DNA of 54,913 nucleotides from a virus (lineage: Duplodnaviria; Caudoviricetes): IMG/VR virus record IMGVR_UViG_3300049489_000585, positions 1 to 54,913 of that record. One strand, written 5' to 3'. The translations under genes and the position numbers were made by a program. Positions 6,885 to 54,913 of this stretch are shown here, piece after piece; position 1 is the stretch's first letter, and the number at the start of each line of letters is the position of its first letter. The notes beneath the pieces were generated by a model. The model was not told the DNA's origin and did not search any database. It saw only the letters and a program-made list of their open reading frames with translations.

Positions 6885-6888
6885 GGCG

Positions 6889-10080: not shown

Positions 10081-10114
10081 CGGGTTGTGAAGAAAATTCT
10101 TTTCTCACGGGCCG

Positions 10115-10143: not shown

Positions 10144-10150
10144 CGGCGCT

Positions 10151-10387
10151 ATGGACGAAATCATCGACAAGGCTTGCGAGGCCGCAGGCGGGCTGACAAA
10201 GCTCGCAGAGGCCATCGGTCAGAGTACGCAGACTGTCTCGAACTGGCGATCTCGCGGCGTCCCCGTCGTGCACTGCGCAGCCATCGAACAGGCCACCGGC
10301 GGCAAAGTCACGCGCCGCGATCTGCGACCCGACGACTGGGCTCGCATCTGGCCCGAGCTGGCCGAGCCCACCAAGGCCGCAGCGTGA
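10151..10387 (+). CDS. cro: Cro/YdaS-like HTH regulator
   Basis: GGLTKLAEAIGQSTQTVSNW HTH and IEQATGGKVTRRDLRPDDW..IWPEL. Confidence 0.88.
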   Translation: MDEIIDKACEAAGGLTKLAEAIGQSTQTVSNWRSRGVPVVHCAAIEQATGGKVTRRDLRPDDWARIWPELAEPTKAAA

Positions 10388-10582
10388 CCGGAGCCGCTGC
10401 ATGACCATGCTCTCCCAACGCACCGCGCTCGCGGTCATCGGCCGGCTGTCGGCCAATCCGATCCCACTGCGCCCGCTGTGCGCGTGCTTCCCCGGCACCT
10501 GCCGCGGTGGCCAGGTCATCGACGGGCGGCTGGCCACCGGACAGTGGTGCAGGGCGCAGGTGCAGGCGGGGAGGGCGGGATC

Positions 10583-11434
10583 ATGACCGCCCCCCGCCCA
10601 GGCTCCTCGATCGACCGCGCCATGCGCGCGCTGCAGGCGTCCGGCCCGCTGCCGCGCGCTGAGCTGGCCCGCCTGATCGAGCGCGAGGACGACGAGCTCG
10701 ACGGCCTGCTTCGCTACGGCTTGCGCATGGGCCTGCTGGTGCGCAGCAACGGCGGCGATGACGTGTCCTATGCGCTGGGGGATGGGGTGCCGGTGGAGAT
10801 CGAGGCTCGGCCATCGGAGCCCCCAGCGAACGAATACACCGCGCGGCGGGGATCGCAACACGTTTTGAAGGCAGAGGCCGCCAGGCCCGACGCTACGGAC
10901 CGCGACACCCCCGCCATCATCAGCCCGGTCGGCGGACCCATGGGCATAGGGCAAGCTGCCGCCGCAGCCCCACGACAGAGCCTTGGCCAGCCGACTGCCG
11001 TGCTGGCCGAGCTGCGGCCCGGCCCCTACCAACCTCAGTCCGGCAGTCAGGCCGCGATCCTGCTGGCCTACCTGCAGCAGCACGCGCCGCACGGCGGGGA
11101 AGCGTGGCTGTCGCCTGCCGATCTCGCCGCGTCCGGGGCCAAGCAGTTCACCGTGCGCGCGAGCCTGGACACCGCGATGAAGTGCGGCGCCGTGTTGTCC
11201 AGGGGTAAGCCTCAACGCTATCAGTGCGGGCCGAACGCGCCCGTGGTGGCGGGCGTGGCGCCGACGGCAGAGCCTGCTGCTGCGCCTGCGCCTGACACCG
11301 CCGCAGCTGTCGAGCTCGCGGCCTTTCTGCTGAAGCAGATGGACGGCGAGATCGAGCGCCTGCAGAACAACCTGCGGGTGGTGCGCCGGCGGCGCGAGGA
11401 CTTCGCTGCGGCGATGAAGGGGAGGCGCGCTTGA
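10583..11434 (+). CDS. Hypothetical protein with possible winged-helix segments
   Basis: Coupled ORF in the rightward operon. Confidence 0.65.
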   Translation: MTAPRPGSSIDRAMRALQASGPLPRAELARLIEREDDELDGLLRYGLRMGLLVRSNGGDDVSYALGDGVPVEIEARPSEPPANEYTARRGSQHVLKAEAARPDATDRDTPAIISPVGGPMGIGQAAAAAPRQSLGQPTAVLAELRPGPYQPQSGSQAAILLAYLQQHAPHGGEAWLSPADLAASGAKQFTVRASLDTAMKCGAVLSRGKPQRYQCGPNAPVVAGVAPTAEPAAAPAPDTAAAVELAAFLLKQMDGEIERLQNNLRVVRRRREDFAAAMKGRRA

Positions 11435-11649
11435 GCGACCAACTGCCTGCCCCGCTGGTGCCGGCCGAAGTCGACCTGCGCACCGCCGCCGCAACGCGCG
11501 GACAGGCTCGCTACAGCGACGGCCGGCCGTGCATCCATGGGCACGTCGGAGACCGGTACACGCGCAACGCGTCATGCGTCGAGTGCCAACGCATTCGATG
11601 CCGAGCGGACAAGGCTCGGATTCGCACCCTCCTGGGCTCGCCACGTTGA
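11431..11649 (+). CDS. Small Cys/His-rich protein
   Basis: GRPCIHGH...CVEC motif, overlaps both neighbours. Confidence 0.6.
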   Translation: MSDQLPAPLVPAEVDLRTAAATRGQARYSDGRPCIHGHVGDRYTRNASCVECQRIRCRADKARIRTLLGSPR

Positions 11650-12464
11650 ACTACTACGAACACCACCTCGGCGACTACGACGGCGCCACCGCGCACTTGA
11701 CGTGGCTGGAGGACTGCGCCTACCGGCGGATGCTGTGCCTGTACTACCGCACGGAGTCACCGCTGCCGGCCGATTTGAAGCAGGTCTGTCGCCTCGTGCG
11801 CGCTACCTCCAAGCCCGAGCGCGATGCGGTGCAGCAGGTGCTGGGGGAGTTCTTCGTTCTGGCCGACGACGGCTGGCGCAACACCAGGTGCGACGAGGAC
11901 ATCGCGGCGTATCACGAGCTAGAGCCCGAGCGCGAGGCCAAGCGCGAGAACGCGAAGGAGCGCCAGCGCCGGGCCCGTCAGCGGCGTGCGGAGCTGTTCG
12001 AGTCGCTACGCGGTCACAACATCGTGCCGCCGTACGACACCACGACGAAGGCACTTGAAGCGCTGCTGTCACGCGTGACAGATGCTCCACAAGTCACGGC
12101 ACCTGTCACACCTGTCACGTGTGACAACACGGCTACCCATACCCACCTCCCACCTCCCACCTCCCAGATTGAAGAGAAGAAGCCTTCGGCTTCTGGGCGC
12201 GGTTCGCGCCTTCCCGCCGACTGGGACCCCGGTCAGCCTGGCTTCGCGTTTGCCACGACGCTGGGGCTGGCGAACGGCGTCGTGACCGCCGAGCTCGACA
12301 AGTTCCGCGACCACTGGGCCGCCAAGACTGGCAAGGACGCCACCAAGGCCGACTGGCAGGCGGCGTGGCGCAACTGGTGCCGCAGGTCCGTCGAGATGCG
12401 TCCGCCGGCCCACGGCGGCCAGCACGGCGGCGGTGCGCCGTTCGACGCGTCGGAGGTGCGGTAA
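11646..12464 (+). CDS. YdaU/DUF1376-family replication initiator
   Basis: NYYEHHLGDY..ATAHL..LED.AYRRML..YY N-terminus, C-terminal FRDHW...DWQAAWRNW. TTG start. Confidence 0.85.
   Translation: MNYYEHHLGDYDGATAHLTWLEDCAYRRMLCLYYRTESPLPADLKQVCRLVRATSKPERDAVQQVLGEFFVLADDGWRNTRCDEDIAAYHELEPEREAKRENAKERQRRARQRRAELFESLRGHNIVPPYDTTTKALEALLSRVTDAPQVTAPVTPVTCDNTATHTHLPPPTSQIEEKKPSASGRGSRLPADWDPGQPGFAFATTLGLANGVVTAELDKFRDHWAAKTGKDATKADWQAAWRNWCRRSVEMRPPAHGGQHGGGAPFDASEVR
12066..12126. repeat. TGTCAC/GTGACA iteron-like cluster, candidate replication origin
   Basis: TGTCACGCGTGACA, AGTCAC, CTGTCACACCTGTCACGTGTGACA inside the initiator gene, as in lambdoid origins. Confidence 0.6.
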
Positions 12465-37408: not shown

Positions 37409-38031
37409 GTGACCGGCATGACGCGCGACGAGTTCAGCGCCATCGAGCCGGCAGCACTGGGCGCCGTCGACATCGGCGACGAGGCGAACGGCACCGCCCA
37501 GCGCGTCGTCGTCAGGGCGCTGAAGGTTGGCCAGCTTCCAGCCTTCGCGCGCGCTGTGCGGCCGCTGACGGCGCAGGTCGAGGCGCTGATCGCCGGCGGC
37601 CTGTCGGTGAACGCCGTGCTGGCGCTGCTGGAGCAGCACACCGACAAGGTCGTCGAGGCCCTGGCGGTGGCCACCGGTGCGTCGTCTGCCGCGCTGAACG
37701 ACAGCAGCGTCGAGCAGATCGGCGAGCTGCTGCTGGCCGTGCTGGCGGCGAACAAGGATTTTTTGCGCGGCCGGCTGACGGCAGCCCTTCGGACGGCCGC
37801 GACGTTGAACCCTGGGGCTGGGCAGACACCGTCGCAGCCCTGAAGGCGTCCGGGTCGTGGTCGCTCGACGAGATCAAGGGGCTGACGCTTGAGCAGGTTC
37901 GCGACTTCCTGACGGCAGCCGACAGGCAGCAGCGCGACCGCCGGCTCGGCGACGCGATCGCCGCACGGATGGCCCAGGCCGAAGGCAAGCACTGGAAGGC
38001 CTACGTGAAGGGGATCAAGGGTGGCCGCTGA
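37409..38031 (+). CDS. Tail assembly chaperone G (37409-37843) and -1 frameshift G-T extension
   Basis: Slippery GGATTTTTTG at 37756-37765. The -1 frame is open up to the tape-measure start. Confidence 0.8.
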
Positions 38032-43058: not shown

Positions 43059-43288
43059 ACGCAGAAGACCCGCTCGTCATGGTGCGCCACTGCACGGCCG
43101 GCGGCGCTCGGTACTGCGCGCCAGGCTTGCGCGCCTTCTGCCGCCGGCACGGCCTGGACTTCCGCGCCTTCCTGCGCGGTGGCCTGCCGGCCAGCGTGAT
43201 CGAGCGGACAGGGGACGCGATGGCCCAGTGCGCCGTGGCCAACGCCCGGGCGGAAGTGGCAGAGAGGGCTGACCATGGGCAGCAGTAG
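43055..43288 (+). CDS. Small tail assembly protein
   Basis: YC.PG.R.F..RHGLDF..FL..G. Confidence 0.7.
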   Translation: MNAEDPLVMVRHCTAGGARYCAPGLRAFCRRHGLDFRAFLRGGLPASVIERTGDAMAQCAVANARAEVAERADHGQQ

Positions 43289-46200
43289 CAGCAGCCGGGT
43301 CGCTGGCTACCGGTACAAGATGGGCCTGCACTTCGGCATCTGCCAAGGCCCCATCGACCGCCTGCGCAGCATCATCGTCGGCGAGCGCATCGCCTGGCAG
43401 GGTGGCAAGACCGACAACGCGAGCTTCCGCGTCCAGGCCCAGCAGCTGTTCGGCGGCGACGAGCGCGAGGGCGGGATCGCGGGCGACGCGGTGGCCATGT
43501 TCGGTGCCAACACCCAGACGCTGCCGGGCGCCGTGGCTGCGCTGCTGCCGTCCCCATCGCCAGCCTTCCGGGGCGTGTTCACGCTGGCCTACGATGGCCT
43601 GATCGGGTCGAACAACCCGTATATCAAGCCCTTCGCCTTCAAGGTGCAGCGCACCCTGGCCGGCTGGAACGCCGGGCCCTGGCTGCCGGACAAGTGCGAG
43701 ATTGGCGCGCTGGGCGCCGAGACCTTCTCTTTCACGGTGCTGCAGTCGCGGTTTGCCGGCGGCGATGCGTCCGACGAGAGCGGCTTCCTGCACGGCGCAC
43801 CGACGCAGTCTGGCGGCTCGGTCACCTCGAGCGGCTTCCGCGTCGACAGCGACAACGCGGCGACCCCTTCGACCCCTTCGACCCTCACCTATGACTGGCC
43901 CGGGTTCGGTGACGCAGGGGTCGGGCCGCTGACGCTGGAGTTCTTCATCGAGTGGGAGGCCACGCCGAACATCGCATACACGCCCTGCGTGCGCCTGATC
44001 ACCGACACCACCAACGTGTCGGGCACGACCCAGGACTTCGGCTTCACCGGCAGCGGTGGCGCGATGGTGTACAACGATGCGGGCTTCGGCGTCGAGTACA
44101 GCGGCAGCGTTGCGCCAGTGTTCCCGGTGCACTGCGCGGTGGTGCTGGACGACGACGAGAAGTCGGTCTACATCGGCGGCACGCGGGTGCACAACGCGAC
44201 CGGTGCGATTCCGCCCAGCGCGAACCCGATGCGCCTGATCCTGGGCGACCCGGCAGGCTACACGTCGGGCCTCACGCGCTTCAGCATCAGCGGCTTCCGC
44301 GTGCGCCGCGAGGCCCTGTACTCCGGCGCCACGATCACGCCGCCGACATCGATCCCTGACCCTGACGTGGCGGCCGCGCAGACCGGCAACGTCGCGATGA
44401 ACCCGGCGCACATCATCTACCAGTGCCTGACCGATCCGGTGTGGGGCATGGGCTACCCGACGGCCACCATCGGGTCGACCTTCGAGGATGCCGCGAATGC
44501 GCTGTACGACGAGGGCTTCGGCCTGTGCCTGCTGTGGAACAAGCAGGAGGAGCTGGGCGCCTTCATCCGCATCGTGCTGGACCACATCGGGGGCGTTCTC
44601 TACGCCGATCCGAAGACCGGGCTGTTCGAGCTGAAGCTGTTGCGCGCGGACTATGACCCAGGCACCCTGCCGGTGTTCGGGCCGACCGAGATCCGCGAGG
44701 TCGAGAGCTTCCAGCGGGTGGGCTACGGCGAGACCATCAACGAGATCACGGTGGTGTTCCGCGATGTCGAGACCAACAAGGACACGCCAGTCACGGTGCA
44801 GAACCTGGCCAACGTGCAGGCCCAGGGCGCCGTCGTCAGCACAACCCGGCAGTACCCTGGCCTGCCCAGCGCCGACCTGGCCCTGCGGGTGGCGCAGCGC
44901 GACCTGATCGCAGCATCGACTCCGCTGGCTAAGGGGCGGGTGACCATGAACCGCGAGGCTTGGTCGCTGGTGCCCGGCGGGGTGTTCAAGCTGAGCTTCC
45001 CTAAGCTGGGCCTGGACAGCGTCGTGGTGCGGGTGCTGGACATCGACTACGGCGAGCTGGCCGACGGGACTGTGTCGGCCCAGGTCGCCGAGGACGTGTT
45101 CGGCTTGCCGGACAGCAGCTACGCGGCGCAAGAGCCGATCGGCTGGGAAGAGCAGGACAACGAACCGGCCGCCATCGTGCATCAGGAGATCATCGAGGCG
45201 CCCTACCGCGGCCTGGTGGGCGCGATGACGGTGGCCGAGCTGGCGGCCGTCGACGAGGATTCTTCCTACCTGTGTGCCCTCGCGGCCCGGCCGTCGGACA
45301 CCGCGACCGGCTTCTCGATCTACAGCCGGGTCGGCGCCGCGGAGTTCCTGCGGCGCGGCGCGGGCAGCTTCGTTCCATGGGGCGAGCTCGACGCCGACAT
45401 CGGACACACCGACACCGCCCTGGTGCTGGCGGCCGGCGCCCTCGACCTCGAGGCCGTGGTGCTGGGCGGCCTGGCGATCATCGGCACCGGCGCGGCGGCC
45501 GAGTGGGTGCGGGTGGACGCGATCAACATCGGCACGCGCACGCTGACCGTCGCGCGCGGCATGCTCGACACCGTGCCAGCGGCGCACGCGGCCGCCGCGC
45601 CTGTGTGGCTGGGCGACGGGTCGCTCGGCATCGAGGGCATCGAGCGGGTGACGGCAGAGGATGTCGACTTCCAGCTGCTGACCCGCGACGGCCTTGGCAG
45701 CCTGCCGCTGGGCGAGGCGACGACGATCAGCCTGGCCGGCGACCAGCGCCAGGCGCGGCCGTACCCGCCGGGCAAGCTGCAGATCAACGGCACCAGCTAT
45801 CCGTCCAGCGCCAGCGACGCGCTCACGATCACCTGGGCGCACCGCGACCGCCTGCAGCAGACCGCCGACTTCATCGCCCAGACCGCCAGCAGCATCGGCC
45901 CGGAGGCCGGCACGACCTACAGCGCTGAGCTGCGCAACGCGGCCGACGTCGTGATCGCTTCCGCCTCGGGCCTGACCGGCACCATCTGGGTGCCGACGAT
46001 CACCCAGGGCGGCACCTACGACGCCACCGTGCGCCTGTGGTCGGTGCGTGGCGGCCTGGAGAGCTGGCAGGTGCACGACCACACCTTCAGCTACACCAGC
46101 GCGGGCGTGAGCATCGGTGCACCGGGCCAGACCGGCGTCGTCACCGCCAGCCTTGTGTTCCCGGCGGCAGGTGCGGCGATCGCTTTGGCGTTGACTCAGA

Positions 46201-47570
46201 CGGCACAGGCTGCGCGCGCGGCATCCGGCTGGAGGTCCACCATCACCCTGCAGAACATCGGCGGCGGATCGTCGGTGGGCGTTGGGTCGGTGCTGACCGC
46301 GCAGTTCACGCGCTACTACACGGTCGGCCCCGACCTGTTCGGCGATGTCACGCAAGCCGGCATCACGTTTTCGACCACCAGGACGCGGGCGCAGGCCCTT
46401 GGAGACTGGGCGACCATCGCGAACCTGAACAGCGTGCTTCGGGCGCGCGGCTGGAACATCTACCTGGACGGCAGCGACGCCAATCCGTCGGTGCAGCTGT
46501 TCGGACCGATCGGCGAGGAATGGGATGTCTACCCGACGCCTGCGGGCACGCCGCCGAACTCGATCTTCTTCGGCCTGGAGCAGAGCATCGCGACGCGAGG
46601 CGGCCCGGCCATCCTGACAGACCGGCCGCAGATCGTCACGGCGACGCTGACCGGCACGCCGAACCCGGGCGACCTGTACACGGTGACCCTGAATGGCGTG
46701 GACTACACCTACACCGCGCTGACGACCGACGACCTCGCTGGCGTGGCCTACGGGCTGGCCACGGTGATCAACGCAGCATCTACCTTCAACGCCACGTCGG
46801 CCGCTAGCGTGATAACGATTGACGGCATCCTGGCGTCCAACGTCTACACCTACTCCGGGTCCGCCTCCGGTGCGCACGCCTACGGCCAGGTCGGCGCCGA
46901 CGCCTTCTGGACCAGCACCACCTTCCTGCTGAACACGCTGGGCGCCGACAACTCGACGACCTTCACCGACGCCAGCACGCTCGGCCACACGGTCACCACG
47001 AACGGCGGCGCAAAGGTCACCAGCAGCCAGCTGGACGCCGACGGCAACGGGGACTTCCTGTCAGTGCCGGGCCATACCGGCTTCGACTTCGGCTCCGGCG
47101 AATTCTGCGTCGAGGCCATCGCAGCGGTGCGCAACAACCCAGGGACAGGCCCGCGCCCGATCATCGCCAGATGGAAGAACGGGCTCAACCAGCTGGCGTT
47201 CTTCCTCGGCGTCGACAACTCGAACAAGCTGGTCTTCTACTACTCGACGGACGGAACCAACGGGGTGTTTACGCCGGTCACCTCGAGCTCGATCGCCGTT
47301 GGCACGACGCCGCAGCACTTCATGGCGAACAGGATCAGCGGCACGCTGCGCCTGTTCATTGCTGGGATCAAGCTGTACGAGGCGACGCACTCCGGGGCGA
47401 TCTTCGTGCCCACCAGCACCCCGCTGACGATCGCCGGCGTCGACTACTCGTCGTCGAGCTCGCACACCGACCTGCTGGGCAAGCACCGGACGTTCCGCAT
47501 CACCAAGGGGTCCGGCCGCGGCTACACGGCGAACTTCACGCCGCCGACGGGGCCGTTCGCGAACTACTGA
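43275..47570 (+). CDS. Tail tip/central fibre protein with LamG-like domains
   Basis: GYRYKMGLH, MNPAHIIY.CLT...WGMG, RPYPPG, C-terminal DFGSGEFCVE...FRITKG..RGYTANFTPPT. Confidence 0.9.
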   Translation: MGSSSSSRVAGYRYKMGLHFGICQGPIDRLRSIIVGERIAWQGGKTDNASFRVQAQQLFGGDEREGGIAGDAVAMFGANTQTLPGAVAALLPSPSPAFRGVFTLAYDGLIGSNNPYIKPFAFKVQRTLAGWNAGPWLPDKCEIGALGAETFSFTVLQSRFAGGDASDESGFLHGAPTQSGGSVTSSGFRVDSDNAATPSTPSTLTYDWPGFGDAGVGPLTLEFFIEWEATPNIAYTPCVRLITDTTNVSGTTQDFGFTGSGGAMVYNDAGFGVEYSGSVAPVFPVHCAVVLDDDEKSVYIGGTRVHNATGAIPPSANPMRLILGDPAGYTSGLTRFSISGFRVRREALYSGATITPPTSIPDPDVAAAQTGNVAMNPAHIIYQCLTDPVWGMGYPTATIGSTFEDAANALYDEGFGLCLLWNKQEELGAFIRIVLDHIGGVLYADPKTGLFELKLLRADYDPGTLPVFGPTEIREVESFQRVGYGETINEITVVFRDVETNKDTPVTVQNLANVQAQGAVVSTTRQYPGLPSADLALRVAQRDLIAASTPLAKGRVTMNREAWSLVPGGVFKLSFPKLGLDSVVVRVLDIDYGELADGTVSAQVAEDVFGLPDSSYAAQEPIGWEEQDNEPAAIVHQEIIEAPYRGLVGAMTVAELAAVDEDSSYLCALAARPSDTATGFSIYSRVGAAEFLRRGAGSFVPWGELDADIGHTDTALVLAAGALDLEAVVLGGLAIIGTGAAAEWVRVDAINIGTRTLTVARGMLDTVPAAHAAAAPVWLGDGSLGIEGIERVTAEDVDFQLLTRDGLGSLPLGEATTISLAGDQRQARPYPPGKLQINGTSYPSSASDALTITWAHRDRLQQTADFIAQTASSIGPEAGTTYSAELRNAADVVIASASGLTGTIWVPTITQGGTYDATVRLWSVRGGLESWQVHDHTFSYTSAGVSIGAPGQTGVVTASLVFPAAGAAIALALTQTAQAARAASGWRSTITLQNIGGGSSVGVGSVLTAQFTRYYTVGPDLFGDVTQAGITFSTTRTRAQALGDWATIANLNSVLRARGWNIYLDGSDANPSVQLFGPIGEEWDVYPTPAGTPPNSIFFGLEQSIATRGGPAILTDRPQIVTATLTGTPNPGDLYTVTLNGVDYTYTALTTDDLAGVAYGLATVINAASTFNATSAASVITIDGILASNVYTYSGSASGAHAYGQVGADAFWTSTTFLLNTLGADNSTTFTDASTLGHTVTTNGGAKVTSSQLDADGNGDFLSVPGHTGFDFGSGEFCVEAIAAVRNNPGTGPRPIIARWKNGLNQLAFFLGVDNSNKLVFYYSTDGTNGVFTPVTSSSIAVGTTPQHFMANRISGTLRLFIAGIKLYEATHSGAIFVPTSTPLTIAGVDYSSSSSHTDLLGKHRTFRITKGSGRGYTANFTPPTGPFANY

Positions 47571-47644
47571 TGGCCGGCGGTTGACGGGCGTCTGTCGCGC
47601 GCCTGTTTCCGCCCGAGCCGACTTGTCCCGCCGTTGTCCCGCGA

Positions 47645-48928
47645 TCAGCCGACTTTGCGGTCTTTCGACTTGCGCAAGTCATTGATTTTCAACACGTGCG
47701 CACCGCGGGAACGGGTTGTGATTCTGGTCGTCGTGGGTTCGAGTCCCATCAGCCACCCCACCCTATGAGAATCGGCCACTTCGGGGGCCTTTTTCTTGGC
47801 CGGCTCGGACGGCACTTGTCGCGCCGTTGTCGCAGGCCCGATGTTCCCGGCCCATGCCGCGACGTGGCTCGGCGCCAAGTGGGCGTAGCGCTGCAGCATG
47901 TCGGCCGAAGCCCAGCCGCCGAGTTCCTGCAGGGCGCTGTCAGGCGTTCCGGCCATGCGGTGCCAGCTGGCCCAGGTGTGCCGCAGGTCGTGCCAGCGCA
48001 GCGTGGGTAGCCCGGCCCGAATGCAGGCCTTGCGCCAGGCCGCGCTGCTGGCCTTGCCGGTGGGCATCTCCCAGGTCAGCCGCGGCTTGTCCTCCGGCCG
48101 GCGCTTCTTGGTCCACCGCGGGGCCGGGAACACCCAGCGCTTGTGCATGCCCTGCTGGCCGCGCAGCACGTCCATGGCGTCGGGGTTCAGCGGCACCGAG
48201 AGCGCCTTGCCGGCCTTGGCCTCGTCGGCGTGCACCCAGGCGGCCGCCCGCGGCAGGTCGACCTCTGACCACTGCAGCAGCCGGACGTTGCTCTCGCGCA
48301 GGCCGGTGGCCAGCGCGAAGCGGGCCATGGCGCGCAGGTGGTCCGGCAACTCGGCCAGCAGCGCCAGCGCTTGCTCGTGCGTGATCCAGTTCGTGCGGCC
48401 CTCGGGCTCGTGCAGCTTGGGCACCGGGGGCGGCGCCGGCAGCCAGCCGCGCAGTTGGGCGTGCTTCAGGATGCGCGACAGGTCGCTCAGGTAGCGGTTG
48501 ACGGTGGCCGGCGACAGCATGCGCGGCGCCGGTGGCCTCTCTCCGGCAGCCTTGGCGGCCTCGATGTCGGCGGCGTTCGCCGGCTCGGCCTGGCGCTCGC
48601 TGCTGATCTTGCGCACCATGTCGGCGGTGATGCCGGCCAGCGGCTTGCCGATCAGGCGGGCGGACAGCCAGCGGAGGTTCCGCTTGGCCTCCTCGAGGCT
48701 GCGCAGGTGCTGGTGCTCATCCAGCCACGACAGGACCGCTTCGTCCCAGGTGTGGGACGGCGCCTCACCTAGACGGTGCTGCCGCCACTGATCGCGGTAA
48801 GCCGTGGCGGCCCACTCCTTCGCCGCGGCTTCGTCCGTGGTGCCAGTGCTGCGGACAAAGCGCCGGCCGTCCTGGGCGGTGAAATCGACCCACCAGGTGC
48901 CGCGCTTGCCTCGTCGGTAGACCCGCAT
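47645..48928 (-). CDS. int: Phage tyrosine integrase
   Basis: STGT, ATVNRYL, TGLRESN, HDLRHTWASW, LGGW, RYAH. Confidence 0.95.
   Translation of the reverse strand: MRVYRRGKRGTWWVDFTAQDGRRFVRSTGTTDEAAAKEWAATAYRDQWRQHRLGEAPSHTWDEAVLSWLDEHQHLRSLEEAKRNLRWLSARLIGKPLAGITADMVRKISSERQAEPANAADIEAAKAAGERPPAPRMLSPATVNRYLSDLSRILKHAQLRGWLPAPPPVPKLHEPEGRTNWITHEQALALLAELPDHLRAMARFALATGLRESNVRLLQWSEVDLPRAAAWVHADEAKAGKALSVPLNPDAMDVLRGQQGMHKRWVFPAPRWTKKRRPEDKPRLTWEMPTGKASSAAWRKACIRAGLPTLRWHDLRHTWASWHRMAGTPDSALQELGGWASADMLQRYAHLAPSHVAAWAGNIGPATTARQVPSEPAKKKAPEVADSHRVGWLMGLEPTTTRITTRSRGAHVLKINDLRKSKDRKVG
47716..47760 (+). other. attP: attP core = 3' half of tRNA-His(GTG)
   Basis: TTGTGATTCTGGTCGTCGTGGGTTCGAGTCCCATCAGCCACCCCA gives the anticodon loop, T-arm, acceptor strand and CCA. 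The 5' half is absent. Confidence 0.9.
47774..47797 (+). terminator. Terminator for reconstituted tRNA
   Basis: GGCCACTTCGGGGGCC followed by TTTTTCTT just after the CCA. Confidence 0.6.
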
Positions 48929-49122
48929 TCGTCCTTGCTCCCTGCCGCTGGCGGCCGATGGTACTGGGTGCGCACCCACTCGATCAGATCCTCGTCGATG
49001 AACAGCCACGCCCGCCCGACCTTGGTCGCCGGCAGCCCGCGGCGCTCGATGGCCTCGGTGACGGTGTCCGGGTGCGCCTTCAGCATCTTGGCGGCGCGGG
49101 TGAGGGTGAGGATGCGGGCCAT
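48769..49122 (-). CDS. xis: Excisionase-like HTH protein
   Basis: LTLTRAAKMLKAHPDTV...GLPATKVGRAWLF. Overlaps the int start. Confidence 0.8.
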   Translation of the reverse strand: MARILTLTRAAKMLKAHPDTVTEAIERRGLPATKVGRAWLFIDEDLIEWVRTQYHRPPAAGSKDECGSTDEASAAPGGSISPPRTAGALSAALAPRTKPRRRSGPPRLTAISGGSTV

Positions 49123-49124
49123 GG

Positions 49125-50222
49125 TCAGACCAGCGAGTCCAGCGGGCTGCGCACGCACATGCCGCCCTGCTTGGCCGGCAGGACGTGGGTATAGATCATC
49201 GTGGTCTCCAGATCGGCGTGGCCGAGTAGGGCCTGAATCGTGCGGATGTCGTACCCGTCCTGCAGCAGGTGGGTGGCAAAGGAGTGCCGCAATGTGTGCG
49301 GGGTGGCGCGCTTCATGATCCCGGCGCCGGCCACGGCCCGGGCCATCAGGCGCTGGATGCCGTCCTCGTGAAGGTGGTGGCGCCTGACAAGGCCAGTCCG
49401 CGGGCACGTGACGTAGGTGTCGGTGGCGAAGATCCACTGCCAGCGGATGTCCTGCCCGGCCCGCGGGTACTTCAGGTGCAGCGCGTGCGGAAGCTCGACG
49501 TCGGCCCGGCCGGCAGTGAGGTCGACCTGGTGCAGCGCCTTGCGCGCTTCCATCACCTCGCGCAGCTGGCCGGCCAGCGATCGCGGCAGCATGACGGTTC
49601 GATCCTTGGCGCCCTTGCCGTCGCGGACGGTGATGCTGCTCGACTCGATGTCCGCGTCCTGCATGCGCAGGCGCAGACCTTCCGTCAGCCGCAGGCCAGC
49701 GCCGTACAGCAGGCGCAACACCAGGCCGCGGATGTTGGCCTGCGGGATCTGCAGCCACAGGCGCGCCACCTCGTCCCGAGTGAGCACGACCGGCAACTTC
49801 TGCGGCTGCTTGGCGCGCACGATTCCCTCGACCCATGGCAGCTCGACCTGCAGGGCTTGCTGGTACAGGAAAAGCAGCGCGGCCAGGGCCTGGCGCTGGG
49901 TGCTGGCCGACACGTCGCGCACCTGGGCAAGATGCGTGAGGAACTGCGACACCTCCGGCGCGCCCATCTCGAGCGGGTGGCGCTTGCCGGACCACAGCAC
50001 GAACTGGCGCGTCCAGTGCCAGTAGGCCTGCTCCGTACGGCGCGAATAGTGTTTGGCCCTGATCGCGCCGACCACCAGGTGGCGCAGGTGGCCAGGCTCA
50101 CCCGGCTGCGGCTCACTCGCGGATGCAGGAACGCTGCTGCGGGCCAGCCCATCTCCGCGAGCCAGCGCGACAGCGCGGCGCGTAACGGGCTGGCAGGTCG
50201 GCGGTGCTTGGAGGATGGCCAT
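49125..50222 (-). CDS. intI: Integron integrase
   Basis: HYSRRTEQAY, STQRQALAALLFLY, LPVVLT, LLYGAGLR, GKGAKDR, IntI-specific insertion LPHAL..KYPRAG...WQWIF...RRHH, HTLRHSFATHLL, LLGH.D..TTMIYTHV, RSPLD. Confidence 0.97.
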   Translation of the reverse strand: MAILQAPPTCQPVTRRAVALARGDGLARSSVPASASEPQPGEPGHLRHLVVGAIRAKHYSRRTEQAYWHWTRQFVLWSGKRHPLEMGAPEVSQFLTHLAQVRDVSASTQRQALAALLFLYQQALQVELPWVEGIVRAKQPQKLPVVLTRDEVARLWLQIPQANIRGLVLRLLYGAGLRLTEGLRLRMQDADIESSSITVRDGKGAKDRTVMLPRSLAGQLREVMEARKALHQVDLTAGRADVELPHALHLKYPRAGQDIRWQWIFATDTYVTCPRTGLVRRHHLHEDGIQRLMARAVAGAGIMKRATPHTLRHSFATHLLQDGYDIRTIQALLGHADLETTMIYTHVLPAKQGGMCVRSPLDSLV

Positions 50223-50229
50223 GGCGTCG

Positions 50230-50270
50230 GGTGTTACACCGCAGATCCTGCGGTCGAATTGAAGTTAGGC
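50230..50270 (+). other. attI: attI site
   Basis: Core G|TTAGGC at 50264 is not part of an attC hairpin. Upstream TGTTACACCGCAG resembles the attI1 accessory repeat at similar spacing. Confidence 0.8.
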
Positions 50271-50518
50271 GTCTCAACGCGCTCCCACCAGCCGCCCCAC
50301 TCAGCAGGCGTCAGTCTGTCGGCGTGCAAGTGTTCGTGCGGCTGGCAGCACTTCAGCTTGCGCGGCATGTAGTCGTTCGGCCTATCGCCTTGCAAGCGCG
50401 GCGCGCTGGCGTTGGTGTAGCCAACGAACAGCACTTGTTCGCGCATGCGTCCGAGCACGTCGCTATAGCGGTTCCGGTAGGTGCCAACCTCGGTCGGCAA
50501 GGTCTTTGTGTACGCCAT
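50234..50518 (-). CDS. Cassette 1: hypothetical protein
   Basis: AAGGAG RBS. Reads through attI and stops 11 nt before the intI ATG. Confidence 0.7.
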   Translation of the reverse strand: MAYTKTLPTEVGTYRNRYSDVLGRMREQVLFVGYTNASAPRLQGDRPNDYMPRKLKCCQPHEHLHADRLTPAEWGGWWERVETPNFNSTAGSAV

Positions 50519-50564
50519 CGCTTTCTCCTTTGTTCGCTGGCCTGGGTCACGCGCCGGTGGCAAC

Positions 50565-50630
50565 GCCTAACCCGTCGTCCGACCTGACAGCCCCGGCAAG
50601 CCGGGTCTGCAGGTCAACTTTGCGTTAGGG
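50565..50630 (+). other. attC: attC1 (66 bp)
   Basis: GCCTAAC...GTTAGGG. ACGCCTAAC pairs with GTTAGGCGT at attI. Confidence 0.92.
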
Positions 50631-50631
50631 C

Positions 50632-51381
50632 TCAAAACCCCATGCCCTGCTGCTCCGGCACGGGCTGCGCCAAATCGAGCAGGGAACCTTGCGCGTAAGC
50701 GGCTTCTATCCGCTGGCACGCCAAATCGAAGGCAGCGCGGTCAACCTCGCAGCCTATGAACTTCCGCCCAGCGCGGGCACATGAAACGCCAGTCGTTCCT
50801 GCGCCCATGTGCGTGTCCAGCACCGTGTATCCGGGCCGCGAGTAGTCCGCCACCAGCGCATCCATCAGCAGGGTCGGCTTGCCACCCATGCGGGCCTTGT
50901 CGTTCCAGCCAGGCCCGGCCACGTAGCCGCCCGGCAGCGTGCCCCACTTCATCTGCGCCTTGGTGCGCGCCACCACAATCCAGTCCGTCCACGAGCTGGG
51001 GCCGTCACCACTCAGGCGCACAGCGCGCCCCGGCTGGTAAAAGGGCAGCGGTGCAAACGCATAGCGCCCGGCCTTCTCCAGCGCGGTGCGCACAGCCAGC
51101 GCCAAGTCGCTGTCGGTCATCCACACCACCCAGCCGCTGCACACCCGCGTGTACTGCTCGGCAAAGTACGCCACGTCTTCAAGCGTCAGCGCGCGGTAGC
51201 CCAGGGCCTGCCGTTCGGCGCTGTCGCGTGCTTTCGAGGCACCGGCATCGTGGCCCGCGTGGCACCGTTCGCTGTAGGGCGGGTCGGTTATCACCGCGTC
51301 CACGCTGGCAAGCGTGGGCAGCACTTCGCGGCAATCACCGCGGTGCAGTGTGGCTTGCCCAATGGTCACGGTCTCCAGCAT
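50632..51381 (-). CDS. Cassette 2: N6/N4 DNA methyltransferase (beta class)
   Basis: GDC.EVL, ITDPPY, KP, VLDTHMGAGTTG, FIGCE. Confidence 0.92.
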   Translation of the reverse strand: MLETVTIGQATLHRGDCREVLPTLASVDAVITDPPYSERCHAGHDAGASKARDSAERQALGYRALTLEDVAYFAEQYTRVCSGWVVWMTDSDLALAVRTALEKAGRYAFAPLPFYQPGRAVRLSGDGPSSWTDWIVVARTKAQMKWGTLPGGYVAGPGWNDKARMGGKPTLLMDALVADYSRPGYTVLDTHMGAGTTGVSCARAGRKFIGCEVDRAAFDLACQRIEAAYAQGSLLDLAQPVPEQQGMGF

Positions 51382-51405
51382 TCGTTGTCCTCGTAGCAAA
51401 TACAG

Positions 51406-51464
51406 CCCTAACAGGTCGCTCAAACGGACGGGCCTACGGCCCGCCGTTTAGCTTTGCGTTAGCC
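51406..51464 (+). other. attC: attC2 (59 bp)
   Basis: CCCTAAC...GTTAGCC. AGCCCTAAC pairs with GTTAGGGCT. Confidence 0.92.
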
Positions 51465-51922
51465 CGCTCAAGCGGATCCAGCACAAATTCCGCGATGTGA
51501 CGGCCGGTGCCCTTTCCTGCGGATCCGTCCTCGGTCGCAAGCCAGCGCACGTCGCCCAGGTTGCGTACCTTCGCGCCCTCGGCCAGCAGCATCAGCACCC
51601 ACTTGTCTATCGGGTACACCAGCACCACGCGCTTGCCCTTCTTGGCTTCGGCAATCGCCTTCCGGGCCCAGGCCGTCGGCCCCTTCTTCTTCCCCTGGTG
51701 CATCACGGATCCAAAGGGCGGGTTGACGTAGTTACTTTCGCCCCACTCGCACGTAAGGCCGTCGAACTCGGGCGGCTTCGGGTAAGGGCACGGGTCGAAG
51801 GTGAAGCTGTAGCGCGCGTGCAGGTCTGCGAACAAATCCGGCGGCGTCAGCCAGTAGTGCTTGCCATCGTCGCCGTTGCCAGCGTGGAACTTGTTTGCGT
51901 CAGGTGCTAGGTTGTTTGCCAT
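51434..51922 (-). CDS. Cassette 3: phage Dam-like N6-adenine methyltransferase
   Basis: WLTPP, FDPCP, DGL..EW, YVNPPF. Stop lies inside attC2. Confidence 0.85.
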   Translation of the reverse strand: MANNLAPDANKFHAGNGDDGKHYWLTPPDLFADLHARYSFTFDPCPYPKPPEFDGLTCEWGESNYVNPPFGSVMHQGKKKGPTAWARKAIAEAKKGKRVVLVYPIDKWVLMLLAEGAKVRNLGDVRWLATEDGSAGKGTGRHIAEFVLDPLERANAKLNGGP

Positions 51923-51947
51923 CGTTCTCTCATTTGTTGTTGCAGCG

Positions 51948-52001
51948 GGCTAACCCGCCGCTGAACCGGACTGAGTACAGCCGGTTAGCTGCACGTTCGG
52001 C
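51948..52001 (+). other. attC: attC3 (54 bp)
   Basis: GGCTAAC...GTTCGGC. AGCGGGCTAAC pairs with GTTAGCCCGCT. Confidence 0.92.
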
Positions 52002-52009
52002 TTCATGCC

Positions 52010-52354
52010 TCAGTTCGCCATGTCGGCGGCAGCCAGCACAATCGCGCGCCTCGTGGCGGCCCGCGGGTCCGTTCCCCACAGCACATCGTGCGCCACAGCC
52101 TCGCCGTCAAAGGCAACGCCGGCCACCGTCACCGCGCCCTCGGTCAGAGTCTGCGCAATGTCTAGTTCCAGCGTCACGGCAAGGTCCAGCGCCTGGCCGC
52201 TGTCGGTCAGAGGGTTCCACCACGTCGCGTGCGTCAGCCACAGTGAGGGCTCGTTCGGCATCTCGGCCTCACGCTCGCTCTGCTTGCGTGCGTTCAGTCC
52301 GTAGCCGGCGGCTTGCGCGGCCTTCAGCAGCAGTTCTTTGTCCGTCAGCATCAT
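52010..52354 (-). CDS. Cassette 4: phage hypothetical protein (possibly NinX/ABA-sandwich-like)
   Basis: WNPLTDSGQALDLAV...ATRRAIV.AAA. AGGAG RBS. Confidence 0.75.
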   Translation of the reverse strand: MMLTDKELLLKAAQAAGYGLNARKQSEREAEMPNEPSLWLTHATWWNPLTDSGQALDLAVTLELDIAQTLTEGAVTVAGVAFDGEAVAHDVLWGTDPRAATRRAIVLAAADMAN

Positions 52355-52387
52355 CTCGCTCCTTTGAATTCACGCGCTCCGGCCGCA

Positions 52388-52439
52388 GCCGAACTACTCG
52401 CTCAAGCCGACCTTCGGCGGCTTAGCTCGAACGTTATGC
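52388..52439 (+). other. attC: attC4 (52 bp)
   Basis: GCCGAACTACTCGCTCAAGCCGACCTTCGGCGGCTTAGCTCGAACGTTATGC, a typical top-strand attC pattern. Confidence 0.92.
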
Positions 52440-52440
52440 A

Positions 52441-52851
52441 TCAGTAACCCGGGTAGTTGCGCTCGGCCTGCGCATCGTTGTGCTTGCTCCAATACTCTGC
52501 CTTCGCCGTGGTGTAGCTCCACTCGTTGCGCCCGTCTTCAGGCCCAGCCACCGTGTACGGTCCGAACTCACTTTGCACATTCCTTGCCCGCAGCGCCGAC
52601 AGAATGCAAGCCGGGCAATCGTTCGCAGCCTCACACATCGCCTTGAACCCACTCGCATCCAGCAGGCGCAGCAGTTCATCGCGCGGCGGCGCTGGCTCTG
52701 GCCCGCCATCGTCGTGCAGATTGGCGCACATGCCGCACACACGCTGCGGGTTCAGCGTGCAGCCGCGCTCGTGGCGCTTCATTGCGCTCGGGCTTCCGTT
52801 GCCCTTGTTGCAGTGGTCGCAGTAGTAGCGCGGCCTCATTGCGGTTCTCAT
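52441..52851 (-). CDS. Cassette 5: zinc-finger protein
   Basis: CDHC...H...C...C..C, CPAC. GAGGA RBS. Confidence 0.78.
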   Translation of the reverse strand: MRTAMRPRYYCDHCNKGNGSPSAMKRHERGCTLNPQRVCGMCANLHDDGGPEPAPPRDELLRLLDASGFKAMCEAANDCPACILSALRARNVQSEFGPYTVAGPEDGRNEWSYTTAKAEYWSKHNDAQAERNYPGY

Positions 52852-52878
52852 GCTTGTCCTCTCCGTTCACCAACTGAT

Positions 52879-52936
52879 GCATAACCCTTCGCTCGAACGG
52901 ACGGCCTACGGCCGCCGTTCAGCTCCCACGTTAGCC
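52879..52936 (+). other. attC: attC5 (58 bp)
   Basis: GCATAAC...GTTAGCC. ACTGATGCATAAC pairs with GTTATGCATCAGT. Confidence 0.92.
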
Positions 52937-52946
52937 AGACACATGC

Positions 52947-53294
52947 TCACTTCAGTATCTGGCGAAGAGCCCAGTACTCGGGGTTGACGATGGCGGTCAT
53001 GGCATCGCTGAACACCAGGCCGCCAATCAGCGCGGTAAGCCCGCAAACGATGCCGACGCCAATCCAAGCAAGGCCGCGGTCAAACTCATCGTTCCATTCG
53101 GGCCTATCACCAGATGTTTTCCTGCCCACAAAGCGCGCGACCCACACGCACGCAGCAGCCCACGCGGTCAACACCACCAAGTCAAGCGCGCCAGAGAGCG
53201 GAGCCTGCTTCACCAGCACGCCCCACAGATACTCCGCCGTTGTGCCGAGTTTGTTTGCCAGCGCCGTCACGGCCTGCAAGGTCTTGTCGTCCAT
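52947..53294 (-). CDS. Cassette 6: two-TM membrane protein
   Basis: LA.KLGTTAEYLW.VL.KQA, two hydrophobic helices, NPEYWAL. Confidence 0.78.
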   Translation of the reverse strand: MDDKTLQAVTALANKLGTTAEYLWGVLVKQAPLSGALDLVVLTAWAAACVWVARFVGRKTSGDRPEWNDEFDRGLAWIGVGIVCGLTALIGGLVFSDAMTAIVNPEYWALRQILK

Positions 53295-53331
53295 GTCATT
53301 CCTATTCGCATGCCAGCATTTCACCAGTGCT

Positions 53332-53394
53332 GGCTAACTGGCGCATGCAGCGGACTCGCCCTAGCGGGCTCGCGCGCTGATGCTGTCGTTCGGC
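53332..53394 (+). other. attC: attC6 (63 bp)
   Basis: GGCTAAC...GTTCGGC. CTGGCTAAC pairs with GTTAGCCAG. Confidence 0.9.
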
Positions 53395-53395
53395 C

Positions 53396-53713
53396 TCAAG
53401 TTCCAACCTTGTCGGCCGTCCCCTTCCAGGTGAATTCGCCATCGGCGCCCACCGGGAAGTGCGCGCGGCAGATGGCGCAGAACGTGCCGCTGTAGAAGGC
53501 GGGCTCGCGGGCATAGGTCTCGGCCAGCGCCAGGCCCATCGTCGTCACGCCGCCGCACTTTTCGTGCACGTAGGACTGGCGCACGGGCCGCACAAAGCCC
53601 TTCGCGCGCTCTTCGGCGCTCAGCACCACGTAGCCCTTCTGCTGCCCCGTGGCCGGGTCAATCTCGCGGTGGTCGGGCGTGACGGGCGAACCGTCTGTCA
53701 GCGTGGTGTTCAT
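53396..53713 (-). CDS. Cassette 7: zinc-ribbon hypothetical protein
   Basis: KGFVRPVR.SY.H.KCG, TFC..C..HFPV. Confidence 0.78.
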   Translation of the reverse strand: MNTTLTDGSPVTPDHREIDPATGQQKGYVVLSAEERAKGFVRPVRQSYVHEKCGGVTTMGLALAETYAREPAFYSGTFCAICRAHFPVGADGEFTWKGTADKVGT

Positions 53714-53926
53714 TGCTTCTCCGCAAGCTCGAAATTGAAGGCGCCGCCTTCGATGTTGAAAGAACAGACGAAACGCCCGGTCTCGTCCACCTCTTGCGCC
53801 GGAATCGACACCTTGCTGCCCAGCCTGCGCAGCAGCGCAATCAGAAGCTGGTCCTTGAAGTCGTCGATCACGTCCGCGTGCAGCCCAGCGCCAGCGGCGC
53901 GAGCGGCATCAGTTCCCTTGCCCATG
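53710..53926 (-). CDS. Cassette 7: hypothetical protein
   Basis: AAAGGA RBS before ATG 53926, ATGA coupling. Confidence 0.7.
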
Positions 53927-53953
53927 TCAGTCCTTTCGCGTCGGCGCATTGAG

Positions 53954-54054
53954 GCCGAACCCTTCGTTCCACCGGACAAGCCCCGGCGGGTGGCATTGGC
54001 GCAATGACCTACTTGGTCAGCGCCGGGTCTTGCCGGTGAACTCCGACGTTAGGC
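53954..54054 (+). other. attC: attC7 (101 bp)
   Basis: GCCGAAC...GTTAGGC. TTGAGGCCGAAC pairs with GTTCGGCCTCAA. Confidence 0.9.
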
Positions 54055-54269
54055 GTCTTGCTGTCATCGAAGCCGTGCTCCACGGCTCGCCAGTCGCCGC
54101 GCCTGGCTTCGCGCATGTCCAGCGCGCGGAATTCGGCCGTGATCTGCCTGCGGAACTTGCGCGCCGCGTTCACATCGGCAGTCACGGTCATGTTCACCTG
54201 ACAGGCCATGTAGAGCCCGGTGGACTTCCCGTCCTTGGTGAAGTTCTCCACCAGCCACGAGTACGTCAT
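54009..54269 (-). CDS. Cassette 8: hypothetical protein
   Basis: GAGGA RBS. Stop lies inside attC7. Confidence 0.7.
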   Translation of the reverse strand: MTYSWLVENFTKDGKSTGLYMACQVNMTVTADVNAARKFRRQITAEFRALDMREARRGDWRAVEHGFDDSKTPNVGVHRQDPALTK

Positions 54270-54484
54270 GAGTAGTCCTCGTCAAAGTTGCACGGCACCG
54301 TCCACTGCTTGCCGCAGCGGCTGCACTCGATGATGTCGTGATCGTCTATTACGCCGCAGCAGTCCACAGTGCGCGGCGCCGGGCATCTTTGCAGGTGCTT
54401 CTGGCAAAGCTCGGGCTTCTCGGCATCGTGCAGGCTGCACCCGCCTTTGATACGGCCACCTTCGTAGCGCTTAGGCGTCGTCAT
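54266..54484 (-). CDS. Cassette 8: small Cys-rich protein
   Basis: Multiple Cys, ECSRCGKQW..PCNFDEDYS, overlaps neighbours. Confidence 0.6.
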   Translation of the reverse strand: MTTPKRYEGGRIKGGCSLHDAEKPELCQKHLQRCPAPRTVDCCGVIDDHDIIECSRCGKQWTVPCNFDEDYS

Positions 54485-54746
54485 ACAGGTCGTATCGCTG
54501 GCAAAGCGCGTCCATGTCAAGCCGGGCGCGCTGCGTCACCAGTTCGCGTCCGTCACGAAATACCACGCAGCGGTAGCGCTGGCCCGGACGAATCTTCCAC
54601 TTGTCGGCCTCAACGCCTTCAAGCACCAGCCGCTCGTCAGCAGTTACGGCATCGCGCGGCTGGCCGTAACTGCGCCACATTTCGCTGGCGTCGCAGTCGT
54701 AGAACTTGCGCGCGGTTCTCACTTCGTCTTTCAGTACCAATACCAT
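54471..54746 (-). CDS. Cassette 8: hypothetical protein
   Basis: GAGGAG RBS. RTARK.Y.CDA...I.PGQRY. Confidence 0.72.
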   Translation of the reverse strand: MVLVLKDEVRTARKFYDCDASEMWRSYGQPRDAVTADERLVLEGVEADKWKIRPGQRYRCVVFRDGRELVTQRARLDMDALCQRYDLYDDA

Positions 54747-54769
54747 CGTTTGCTCCTCTGCGCCACGAC

Positions 54770-54823
54770 GCCTAACCCGTCATTCGAGCCGACCGTTCCG
54801 GCGGCTCAATTCCCACGTTGTGC
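54770..54823 (+). other. attC: attC8 (54 bp)
   Basis: GCCTAACCCGTCATTCGAGCCGAC...CGGCTCAATTCCCACGTTGTGC. GACGCCTAAC pairs with GTTAGGCGTC. Confidence 0.93.
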
Positions 54824-54913
54824 CGCACTGAACACCGCCGCGCCAGTTCCACCAGCCAAGCGCGGAACTCCGGCGGCGTGTGCTCTCGCTCGGCCTTGCT
54901 CATGATCTCGACC
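54815..54913 (+). repeat. Exact duplicate of 123-221 (start of cassette 9); circular overlap
   Basis: ACGTTGTGCCGCACTGAAC...GATCTCGACC is identical at both places. Confidence 0.95.

Follow-up and report, generated by a model that had tools for sequence, protein, structure and literature searches.

How an integron integrase gene is transcribed when the DNA upstream of it is itself exchangeable is the question raised by one locus of the virus genome IMGVR_UViG_3300049489_000585 (IMG/VR; Duplodnaviria, Caudoviricetes), whose 54,913 nt were analyzed in full and are called here the window. The record, rated complete, represents a whole virus genome, that of a temperate siphovirus-like phage with a Burkholderiales-type host, which closes into a circle and has its own integron aboard. 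The integrase gene intI lies on the minus strand (49125-50222) between the attI site of the integron and the phage excisionase and integrase genes xis and int. The initial annotation had proposed that intI has no room for a promoter of its own and is wired into the phage operon together with xis and int. An intI placed in the integration/excision module of a phage bears on how integron integrases devoid of a LexA site are controlled. The evidence assembled below leans somewhat toward an intI that lacks a dedicated conserved promoter and would be read through from the early-left operon of the phage.

The product of intI is 365 aa long, with an N-terminal extension of about 45 aa. It scores 412.7 bits against TIGR02249 (cut-off 265), and its residues 54-362 align with VchIntIA of Vibrio cholerae (2a3v_A, E 2.6e-72), the closest solved integrase, through the integron-specific insert (KYP..A...rW.wiF) and the HxxR and Tyr motifs. 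As judged from the predicted protein sequence, these comparisons confirm a true integron integrase with its additional domain and intact catalytic motifs. The reading frame opens after an in-frame stop, the TAA of the attI R box located 42 nt upstream of the ATG, and this ATG, with its A at 50222 on the minus strand, is the earliest start that it contains. The N-terminal extension (M..QAPPT..VTRR) is retained in relatives with synonymous changes and in-frame indels, which argues that this ATG is the real start. A start codon further downstream would have made space for a promoter; the sole other in-frame start, a GTG at codon 50, was rejected because it would cut into the conserved core and its first conserved helix, and the conserved N-terminus rules it out.

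A scan of viral contigs yielded 47 loci with relatives of this IntI, at identities of up to 77%. Fifty-six integrases were placed in a tree, namely those of the window, of 29 of the 47 viral loci and of 26 of 80 genome loci, four further genome loci being left out for their in-frame stops. One group of this tree holds 23 viral rows and no genome row (Shimodaira-Hasegawa-like approximate likelihood ratio test, SH-aLRT, 81); nested in it are a clade of 12 rows and one of 7, each with an SH-aLRT of 99. On this tree, the integrases associated with the present layout form a virus-only group.

The interval between the recombination crossover and the intI ATG is filled by a compact attI (50223-50270). 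It consists of the R box GTTAGGC (50264-50270), with the crossover G|TT at 50264|50265, of two inner elements, CGAATT (50255-50260) and the palindrome CCGCAG-ATC-CTGCGG (50239-50253), and of a TGTTA box (50232-50236) that reads TAACA in the sense of intI. The 5' end of intI is thus bordered by an attI with its crossover in GTTRRRY, as befits an integron. The spacings on which the initial annotation relied were all recovered: 41 nt separate the ATG from the crossover (50223-50263), 11 nt separate the stop of the first cassette open reading frame (ORF; TAA at 50236-50234) from the ATG at 50222, and 2 nt separate the intI stop (TGA, 49127-49125) from the xis ATG (49122). For comparison, the window was set beside 25 of the 47 viral loci. 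In 24 of these 26 sequences, AATTC follows an R box that is located 41-65 nt ahead of the intI ATG (41 nt in 7, 42 in 4, 43 in 1, 45 in 8, 54 in 3 and 65 in 1); the motif is absent from the two others, L016 and L019. In 24 of the 26, the DNA is conserved between the AAC of the R box and the ATG and unrelated past the AAC; this AAC, AATTCG and TAACA are invariant in the 17 sequences that were aligned. Three pairs of loci with identical or near-identical integrases (L013/L014, L005/L022 and L008/L009) carry different DNA directly past the R box, as insertion at attI predicts. Comparison, beyond the motif alone, therefore establishes the position of the crossover. The compact attI was encountered in none of the 34 chromosomal relatives examined; a contig of a metagenome-assembled genome (L049) has it and is apparently the same contig as viral locus L011. 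A further GCGTAAC lies on the plus strand within the 5' coding region of intI (50180-50186; GTTACGC in the sense of intI, the VTR codons). Conserved in relatives, it has the opposite orientation to both the R box and the TGTTA box, and attI may for this reason extend into the gene.

Since the DNA upstream of attI is made of exchangeable cassettes, no conserved DNA is left there for a dedicated intI promoter. The proposed lack of room thus stands insofar as only 41-65 nt are conserved and these already contain the attI boxes; it is weakened by a poor sigma-70-like match inside attI, TCGACC-15-TAACAC (7/12), whose end is 8 nt away from the ATG. As control we used a class 1 integron (AB571791, locus L129). 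Both systems have an integrase with the extra domain, a GTTRRRY R box, a TAAC repeat at 31-32 nt and the same attC polarity. In the control, however, the R box and the annotated intI1 ATG are 135 nt apart, with a LexA box, CTGTACAAAAAAACAG, 12 nt before the ATG, as opposed to 41 nt and no such box in the phage. The TAAC boxes of the control end at distances of 32, 51 and 76 nt from its R box; in the phage a single box does so at 31 nt, with the ATG following 11 nt later. By this distance, the phage box occupies the place of the first attI1 repeat, the integrase-binding site DR2 (the attI1 repeats being named DR1 and DR2).

Control by LexA was considered separately. The motif CTGT-N8-ACAG was assumed for the host from the Burkholderiales affiliation of the nearest relative and was scanned with at most one mismatch. 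As first reported, it is missing near intI: the nearest match is at 48502, inside xis/int, and the window as a whole contains 7 matches for 17.9 expected by chance. Between -300 and +100 of intI, no match was present in 22 of the 26 sequences, the window included, and in the remaining 4 the LexA-like matches lie at positions that are not conserved. The LexA-controlled class is defined by a box at -100 to +50 of intI in the available text of Cambray et al. (2011, PMC3108266), and the phage intI falls outside it. The accompanying statement that most intI genes are LexA-controlled proved too strong for this habitat: as far as that text describes them, freshwater lineages without a LexA box are not odd, so the missing box is by itself unsurprising (Cambray et al. 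2011, PMC3108266). The same text correlates the loss of LexA control with dead integrases; the phage IntI, in contrast, is intact and apparently active without such a box. Two palindromes resembling CTGT-N8-ACAG, CTGTCACGCGTGACAG (12066-12081) and CTGTCACGTGTGACAA (12112-12127), were rejected as LexA sites. They stand 46 nt apart inside the replication initiator gene, remote from intI, and are more likely origin repeats.

On the other side of intI, xis (48769-49122, minus strand) encodes a protein of the excisionase helix-turn-helix (HTH) family (HTH_17, 1e-9; TIGR01764, 36.6 bits for a cut-off of 28.8; phrog_2907), and int (47645-48928, minus strand, likely ATG at 48928) a phage tyrosine integrase (PF00589, 9.1e-25; phrog_1, 7.4e-65). 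The two frames overlap by about 160 nt (48769-48928), and by about 145 nt in five relatives where homologs of xis and int directly follow intI (L002, L003, L005, L006 and L022); across the window and these five, the spacing from intI to xis ranges from a 4-nt overlap to 2 nt. Other relatives have a different recombinase after intI on the same strand, either a large serine recombinase (L004, L010, L017 and L018) or a tyrosine integrase (L007, L008, L016, L023, L024 and L025, the last a weak match of 21 bits). Phage integrases encoded opposite to intI are seen in L009 and L014, L029 having the layout of L009, and also in L015 and L028, where the integrase is of the tyrosine type and an HTH_17 gene overlaps the intI stop; small ORFs of the HTH_17 or DUF4224 families overlap this stop in L015, L016 and L028. 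Altogether, all 20 of the related loci for which downstream sequence is available have a phage recombinase of the tyrosine or large serine type adjoining intI; it shares the strand of intI in 15 and opposes it in 5. Among the loci compared, the pairing of intI with a phage recombinase appears to be the rule of the lineage, irrespective of recombinase type. Past the recombinase, 5 of the 12 ORFs tested are endolysin or tail fiber genes on the opposite strand. Of the proposed wiring into the phage operon, the tight packing with xis and int and the recombinase beside intI are observed; transcription as a single operon is what we infer from them.

Upstream of attI, the phage carries 13 cassettes. 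Positions 123-221 of the window are identical to 54815-54913, so the circle closes with 54913 continuing at 222, and the array of about 8 kb runs from 50265 to 54913 and on from 222 to 3582. The first part holds cassettes 1 to 8 and the start of cassette 9, with all ORFs on the minus strand and attC sites at 50565-50630, 51406-51464, 51948-52001, 52388-52439, 52879-52936, 53332-53394, 53954-54054 and 54770-54823. The second part, likewise with minus-strand genes, holds the remainder of cassette 9 to cassette 13, with attC sites at 724-823, 1170-1258, 1905-1994, 2937-2990 and 3488-3582. These sites, 52-101 nt long, were located by visual inspection and then folded. Extra bases are on the 3' arm of the intI-sense strand in 8 of the 13, with 2 ties and 3 opposite cases in a crude count; in the class 1 control they are on the 3' arm in 2 of 2. 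The cassettes are thus bounded by attC sites with extra bases on one arm, as in integrons. The plus strand is the attC top strand and the attC polarity relative to intI the usual one, given that conservation stops next to intI, that deletion joints (described below) fall at plus-strand GTT and that the bulged arm is the expected one. The opposite polarity, with canonical cassettes and intI at the far end of the array, was rejected, because the joints are at plus-strand GTT, conservation ends at the R box on the intI side and the arm matches class 1.

With this polarity, the genes of all 13 cassettes are on the attC bottom strand and directed toward intI, instead of being on the top strand and read from a cassette promoter Pc away from the integrase gene; in the class 1 control, cassette genes are directed away from intI1. 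All array genes with a family match or a high G+C content at third codon positions are on the minus strand. Fourteen ORFs upstream of intI share its strand in the window and none opposes it; over 20 sequences the figures are 111 versus 33. The cassette-1 ORF (50234-50528, minus strand, 98 aa, no family match), with AAGGAG before its ATG at 50528, extends across the crossover and terminates at the TAA within the TAACA box. Similarly, 18 of 22 sequences have an ORF on the strand of intI whose end is 11-70 nt upstream of the gene, in many cases at the TAA that belongs to the R box or to the TAACA box. With cassette genes so reversed, a Pc reading away from intI would produce antisense RNA, and the consensus scan detected no plus-strand sigma-70-like promoter near attI, where Pc would be expected. 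In 'inverted integrase' integrons, of which Treponema denticola provides an example, intI and cassette genes also have the same direction. There, however, intI itself is turned, its 3' end facing attI; in the phage, intI presents its 5' end to attI as usual, and what is reversed with respect to attC is the genes that the cassettes carry.

The direction of the cassette genes is also that of the phage genes beyond them. An unbroken minus-strand block runs from 10018 down through an exonuclease (7997-8839; phrog_69 at 7.6e-17), a RecT-like annealing protein (6889-7989; phrog_148 at 8.9e-78) and an SbcC-like protein to position 1, and since the circle closes at 222, it continues from 54913 to int at 47645, about 17 kb in total. 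The last backbone gene (3584-4426, minus strand) has its stop 1 nt from the R' box of attC13, which means that array and backbone abut. The promoter scan used the sigma-70 consensus only, which is weak in DNA of 68% G+C. Positions 1-11000 contain two sigma-70-like sites of at least 9/12, both in the switch region: a leftward promoter-like TTGACA-17-TAGATT (10/12; 10080-10052, minus strand), which heads the 17-kb block and faces a cro-like gene (10115-10387, plus strand, YdaS/Cro HTH family match), and a plus-strand site at 10115-10143. The former is the only minus-strand match of at least 9/12 in the window, about 17 kb upstream. No match of at least 9/12 was found on either strand in 47400-54913. 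When the threshold is lowered to 8/12, the minus strand of the entire window has nine matches, none of them in 50223-54913, the other array matches being two weak ones (8/12) at 1496 and 3459. Terminator-like sites are not in excess over shuffled sequence (4 versus 4.3 expected and 1 versus 5.5 expected), and in the scanned parts none coincides with attC.

In lambda-type phages, the leftward early operon is a single transcription unit, read with antitermination from its early promoter to its end in xis and int. Co-orientation, tight spacing, a single strong promoter-like site and the lack of a terminator excess fit such an operon, and the two systems share a leftward promoter by a cro-like gene, followed by an exonuclease, an annealing protein, accessory genes, xis, int, attP and the end of the tail genes. 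They differ in that the phage has an integron integrase and 8 kb of attC-bounded cassettes where lambda has accessory genes. No equivalents of N, cI or sib were identified in the searches of the phage genes. The gene next to the leftward promoter-like site encodes a basic protein with no family match (9761-10018, minus strand, 85 aa, 19 of them Lys or Arg), whose place and make-up give only a hint of an N-type antiterminator.

From this layout, a leftward early transcript starting near 10080-10052 is predicted to pass through the exonuclease and RecT genes and then the cassettes before reaching intI, xis and int. IntI would be made along with Xis and Int at the times when the leftward early genes are transcribed, namely after infection or upon prophage induction. 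Its translation may depend in part on ribosomes finishing the cassette-1 ORF at either of the two conserved TAA of attI, the close relatives having no Shine-Dalgarno sequence. Control by the phage switch would then assume the role that a LexA box has in classical integrons. The initial annotation also supposed a shuffling timed to early lytic growth or induction, with single-stranded DNA from phage replication and the exonuclease/RecT system; such timing and such a DNA supply are both hypothetical.

Several observations weigh against this read-through. Internal, cassette-borne or phage-specific promoters would have been missed by a sigma-70 scan. The 17 kb to be transcribed include 13 strong attC hairpins (-18 to -59 kcal/mol as RNA), so that antitermination would be needed, for which the basic 85-aa protein is the sole hint. 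At 5 of the 20 loci the phage integrase is on the strand opposite to intI, and a search of the phage for Peptidase_S24, the LexA/CI-type repressor family, gave none, which leaves an SOS link through an autocleaving repressor unsupported. Other points converge on attI itself, where a weak or unconventional promoter could drive intI, and xis and int behind it, from a near-leaderless mRNA, possibly autorepressed by IntI binding to attI. The 7/12 match described above is placed for this role, both of its elements are among the most conserved columns and the distance from TAACA to the ATG is held at 8-12 nt. The close clade lacks a Shine-Dalgarno sequence before the ATG, as would also fit a leaderless mRNA. 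In two relatives, L043 and L044 (5857-6147 in the latter), attI, xis and int are kept and intI is internally deleted in frame, leaving an 80-aa ORF made of about the first 30 residues and the last 47. Upstream of attI they have a divergent gene and no co-oriented cassette; xis and int would consequently need a promoter near attI in these genomes, and the sigma-70-like scan of their intergenic DNA gave 7/12 matches at best. A second GTAACAC box is present just past their R box. The presumed -10 element, on the other hand, never ends in T in the 17 aligned sequences, and the spacer has just 15 nt. L023 has two copies of the TAACA box, and in L017, L018 and L028 it is displaced by about 10 nt, close to one helical turn, with the boxes 25 nt apart, as would suit recombinase sites; it stands at the position of the first attI1 repeat, and more distant members of the clade have GGAG before the ATG and are hence not leaderless. 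A recombinase site fits the box better than a -10 element, and we regard a promoter within attI, the main rival to read-through, as doubtful.

Promoters carried by the cassettes, with an intI level set by whichever cassettes lie upstream, would suit the frequent exchange, the different first cassettes of near-identical platforms and the deletions seen within one sample, and cassettes with their own promoters are described for phage and chromosomal integrons in the main text of Qi et al. (2023, PMC9892861). We nevertheless hold this to be unlikely: no minus-strand match reaches even 8/12 in 50223-54913, those elsewhere in the array are the two weak ones at 1496 and 3459, the short stretch from attC1 to the cassette-1 ATG has a ribosome-binding site, and a variable promoter cannot account for a conserved layout. 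Finally, the tight packing might be an accident of a recently captured or decaying integron, with no meaningful expression of intI. The same main text (PMC9892861) interprets the integron pieces of cultured phages as fragments of host integrons, and decay of intI is seen in L043 and L044. An accident is nonetheless highly improbable with an intact integrase, a layout kept in 24 of 26 sequences within a virus-only group, first cassettes that differ between near-identical platforms and, in what is likely the source sample, deletions at G|TT that remove exact cassettes. Read-through from the early-left operon is therefore the explanation that we retain, at the modest strength given at the outset.

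The deletions were found in X1, a freshwater sediment run that is probably the source sample, as it contains 98% of the sampled words of the window; the X1 evidence consists of assembled contigs with depths rather than raw reads. Depth is 48-52 over the phage backbone and 9.5 over positions 54021-54670. A contig of depth 48.9 joins attC7 to cassette 9 (54045 to 54815), skipping 769 nt and sharing ACGTT at the joint, which means that cassette 8 (54049-54817, 769 nt) is carried by a minority of genomes in the likely source sample. A second joint links attC3 to cassette 6 and skips the 935 nt of cassettes 4 and 5 (51996-52930), with CACGTT shared and a depth of 21.5; it is the weaker of the two, consisting of one contig with a 24-nt side and surrounding depths that do not sum cleanly. 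X1 contigs also run into dissimilar sequence after the GTT of attC2 (51462) and attC8 (54819). Two cassette-exact deletions at G|TT of R', where integron recombination takes place, suggest that the integron is active. In the record itself, positions 1-127 duplicate 53924-54050 and are joined to 54820 onward; the circular record was opened within the cassette array, its start being the majority-form junction and its end the minority form. The lack of cassette 8 in most genomes explains this opening copy of 53924-54050.

The cassettes have also been encountered apart from this phage. Single cassettes at 90-100% identity with other flanks are present in wastewater and freshwater metagenomes, the stretches found elsewhere being 50528-51015, 51260-51503, 52724-52967 and 53944-54913, and cassette 8 recurs without a mismatch in contigs of a wastewater metatranscriptome. 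Assembled contigs of the RNA or possibly-RNA libraries X8 and X23 likewise match the window in single cassettes only, placed in other contexts. These occurrences point to a cassette pool common to far more than this phage. As for cargo, the array encodes two DNA methyltransferases, one matching N6_N4_Mtase (first part of the array) and one matching phrog_954 (2951-3574, minus strand), two weaker methyltransferase-like matches, among which a Dam-like one below the Pfam cut-off (also in the first part), an RNA ligase (1253-1885, minus strand) and otherwise small unknown proteins; phrog_12600 is matched as well. It looks like counter-defense. The G+C content of the array (0.60-0.67) is below that of most of the backbone, the adjoining blocks being at 0.69-0.72.

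The rest of the genome, as annotated with PHROG and Pfam scans, has the gene content of a temperate siphovirus-like phage. Its plus strand carries a replication module at 11.5-15.5 kb, with the initiator gene at 11529-12464, and the late genes, from the terminase (17244) through portal, capsid and tape measure (38021) to a tail protein (43275-47570). Since int adjoins the end of the tail genes, the gene order is the vegetative one, as in a lambda-like phage. A tRNA-like 3' piece at 47713-47760, which overlaps int where its ORF ends, shares 93.8% identity over 48 nt with unannotated sequence in the Burkholderia phages Magia and BgManors32; it is probably the attP core. X1 contigs leave it into dissimilar DNA on either side, as expected if free and integrated forms coexist. 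A search of the entire window with Rfam at gathering thresholds gave no match, attC sites included. ARAGORN called an 89-nt tRNA-Asp at 37419-37507 on the minus strand, within the tail assembly chaperone gene, which is probably a false call.

Among known integrons, that of V. cholerae provides the closest solved integrase and likewise has attI beside the 5' end of intI. The available text of Krin et al. (2014, PMC3948777) puts the start of the cassette mRNA at 65 bp from the attI point, with 132 bp between it and the transcription start of intIA, and describes LexA and CRP sites in the integrase promoter Pint. Unlike this arrangement, as described there, the phage has no space for Pint or Pc and its cassette genes are reversed. 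For the mobile element SXT, an integrative and conjugative element, the part of Cambray et al. (2011, PMC3108266) that deals with it describes SOS acting on the element through the phage-like repressor SetR. SXT and the phage are alike in having an integron integrase without a LexA site in a mobile element whose switch could relay stress; SetR is known in the former, whereas no repressor was identified in the phage, where such a link is presumed.

Integrons in phage genomes are already in print. The main text of Qi et al. (2023, PMC9892861) gives four cases among cultured or predicted phages, namely phages of Vibrio anguillarum, an isolate of P1 and a prophage of Shewanella; those from Vibrio and P1, at least, are described there as host-type integrons or fragments. 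These cases resemble ours in that a complete integron resides in a temperate phage and that the cassettes include methyltransferases, and their integrases are 43-56% identical to the IntI of the window. LexA, excisionase and Pint do not occur in that main text, its supplements not being covered. A literature search that did not extend to subscription journals or supplements returned no published intI-xis-int arrangement, compact attI or reversed cassettes in phage integrons, and within that coverage the present layout was not found described. The virus-only integrases, the compact attI, the reversed genes, the methyltransferase-rich cargo and the turnover within one sample together show an integron that, as read from these sequences, would have evolved inside phages rather than been picked up by chance. 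It constitutes a phage-side counterpart to the anti-phage defense systems that recent reports, in their accessible text, describe in the cassettes of bacterial integrons.

The reversed layout may have a further consequence, which we put forward as speculative. With cassette genes on the attC bottom strand, leftward transcription would use the top strand as template, and the bottom strand, which is the one that recombines, would stay single-stranded on the non-template side. Should the iteron-like repeats at 12066 and 12112 be the origin, a leftward fork would moreover put the bottom strand on the lagging-strand template. With IntI encoded at the far end of this transcript, an infection or induction could bring a burst of folded attC sites along with the integrase. 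The layout would in this way couple cassette shuffling to phage gene expression and act as a phage-owned diversity generator under the lysis-lysogeny switch rather than under LexA. If this is true, a phage brood would vary in the identity and order of its methyltransferase and other probable counter-defense cassettes.

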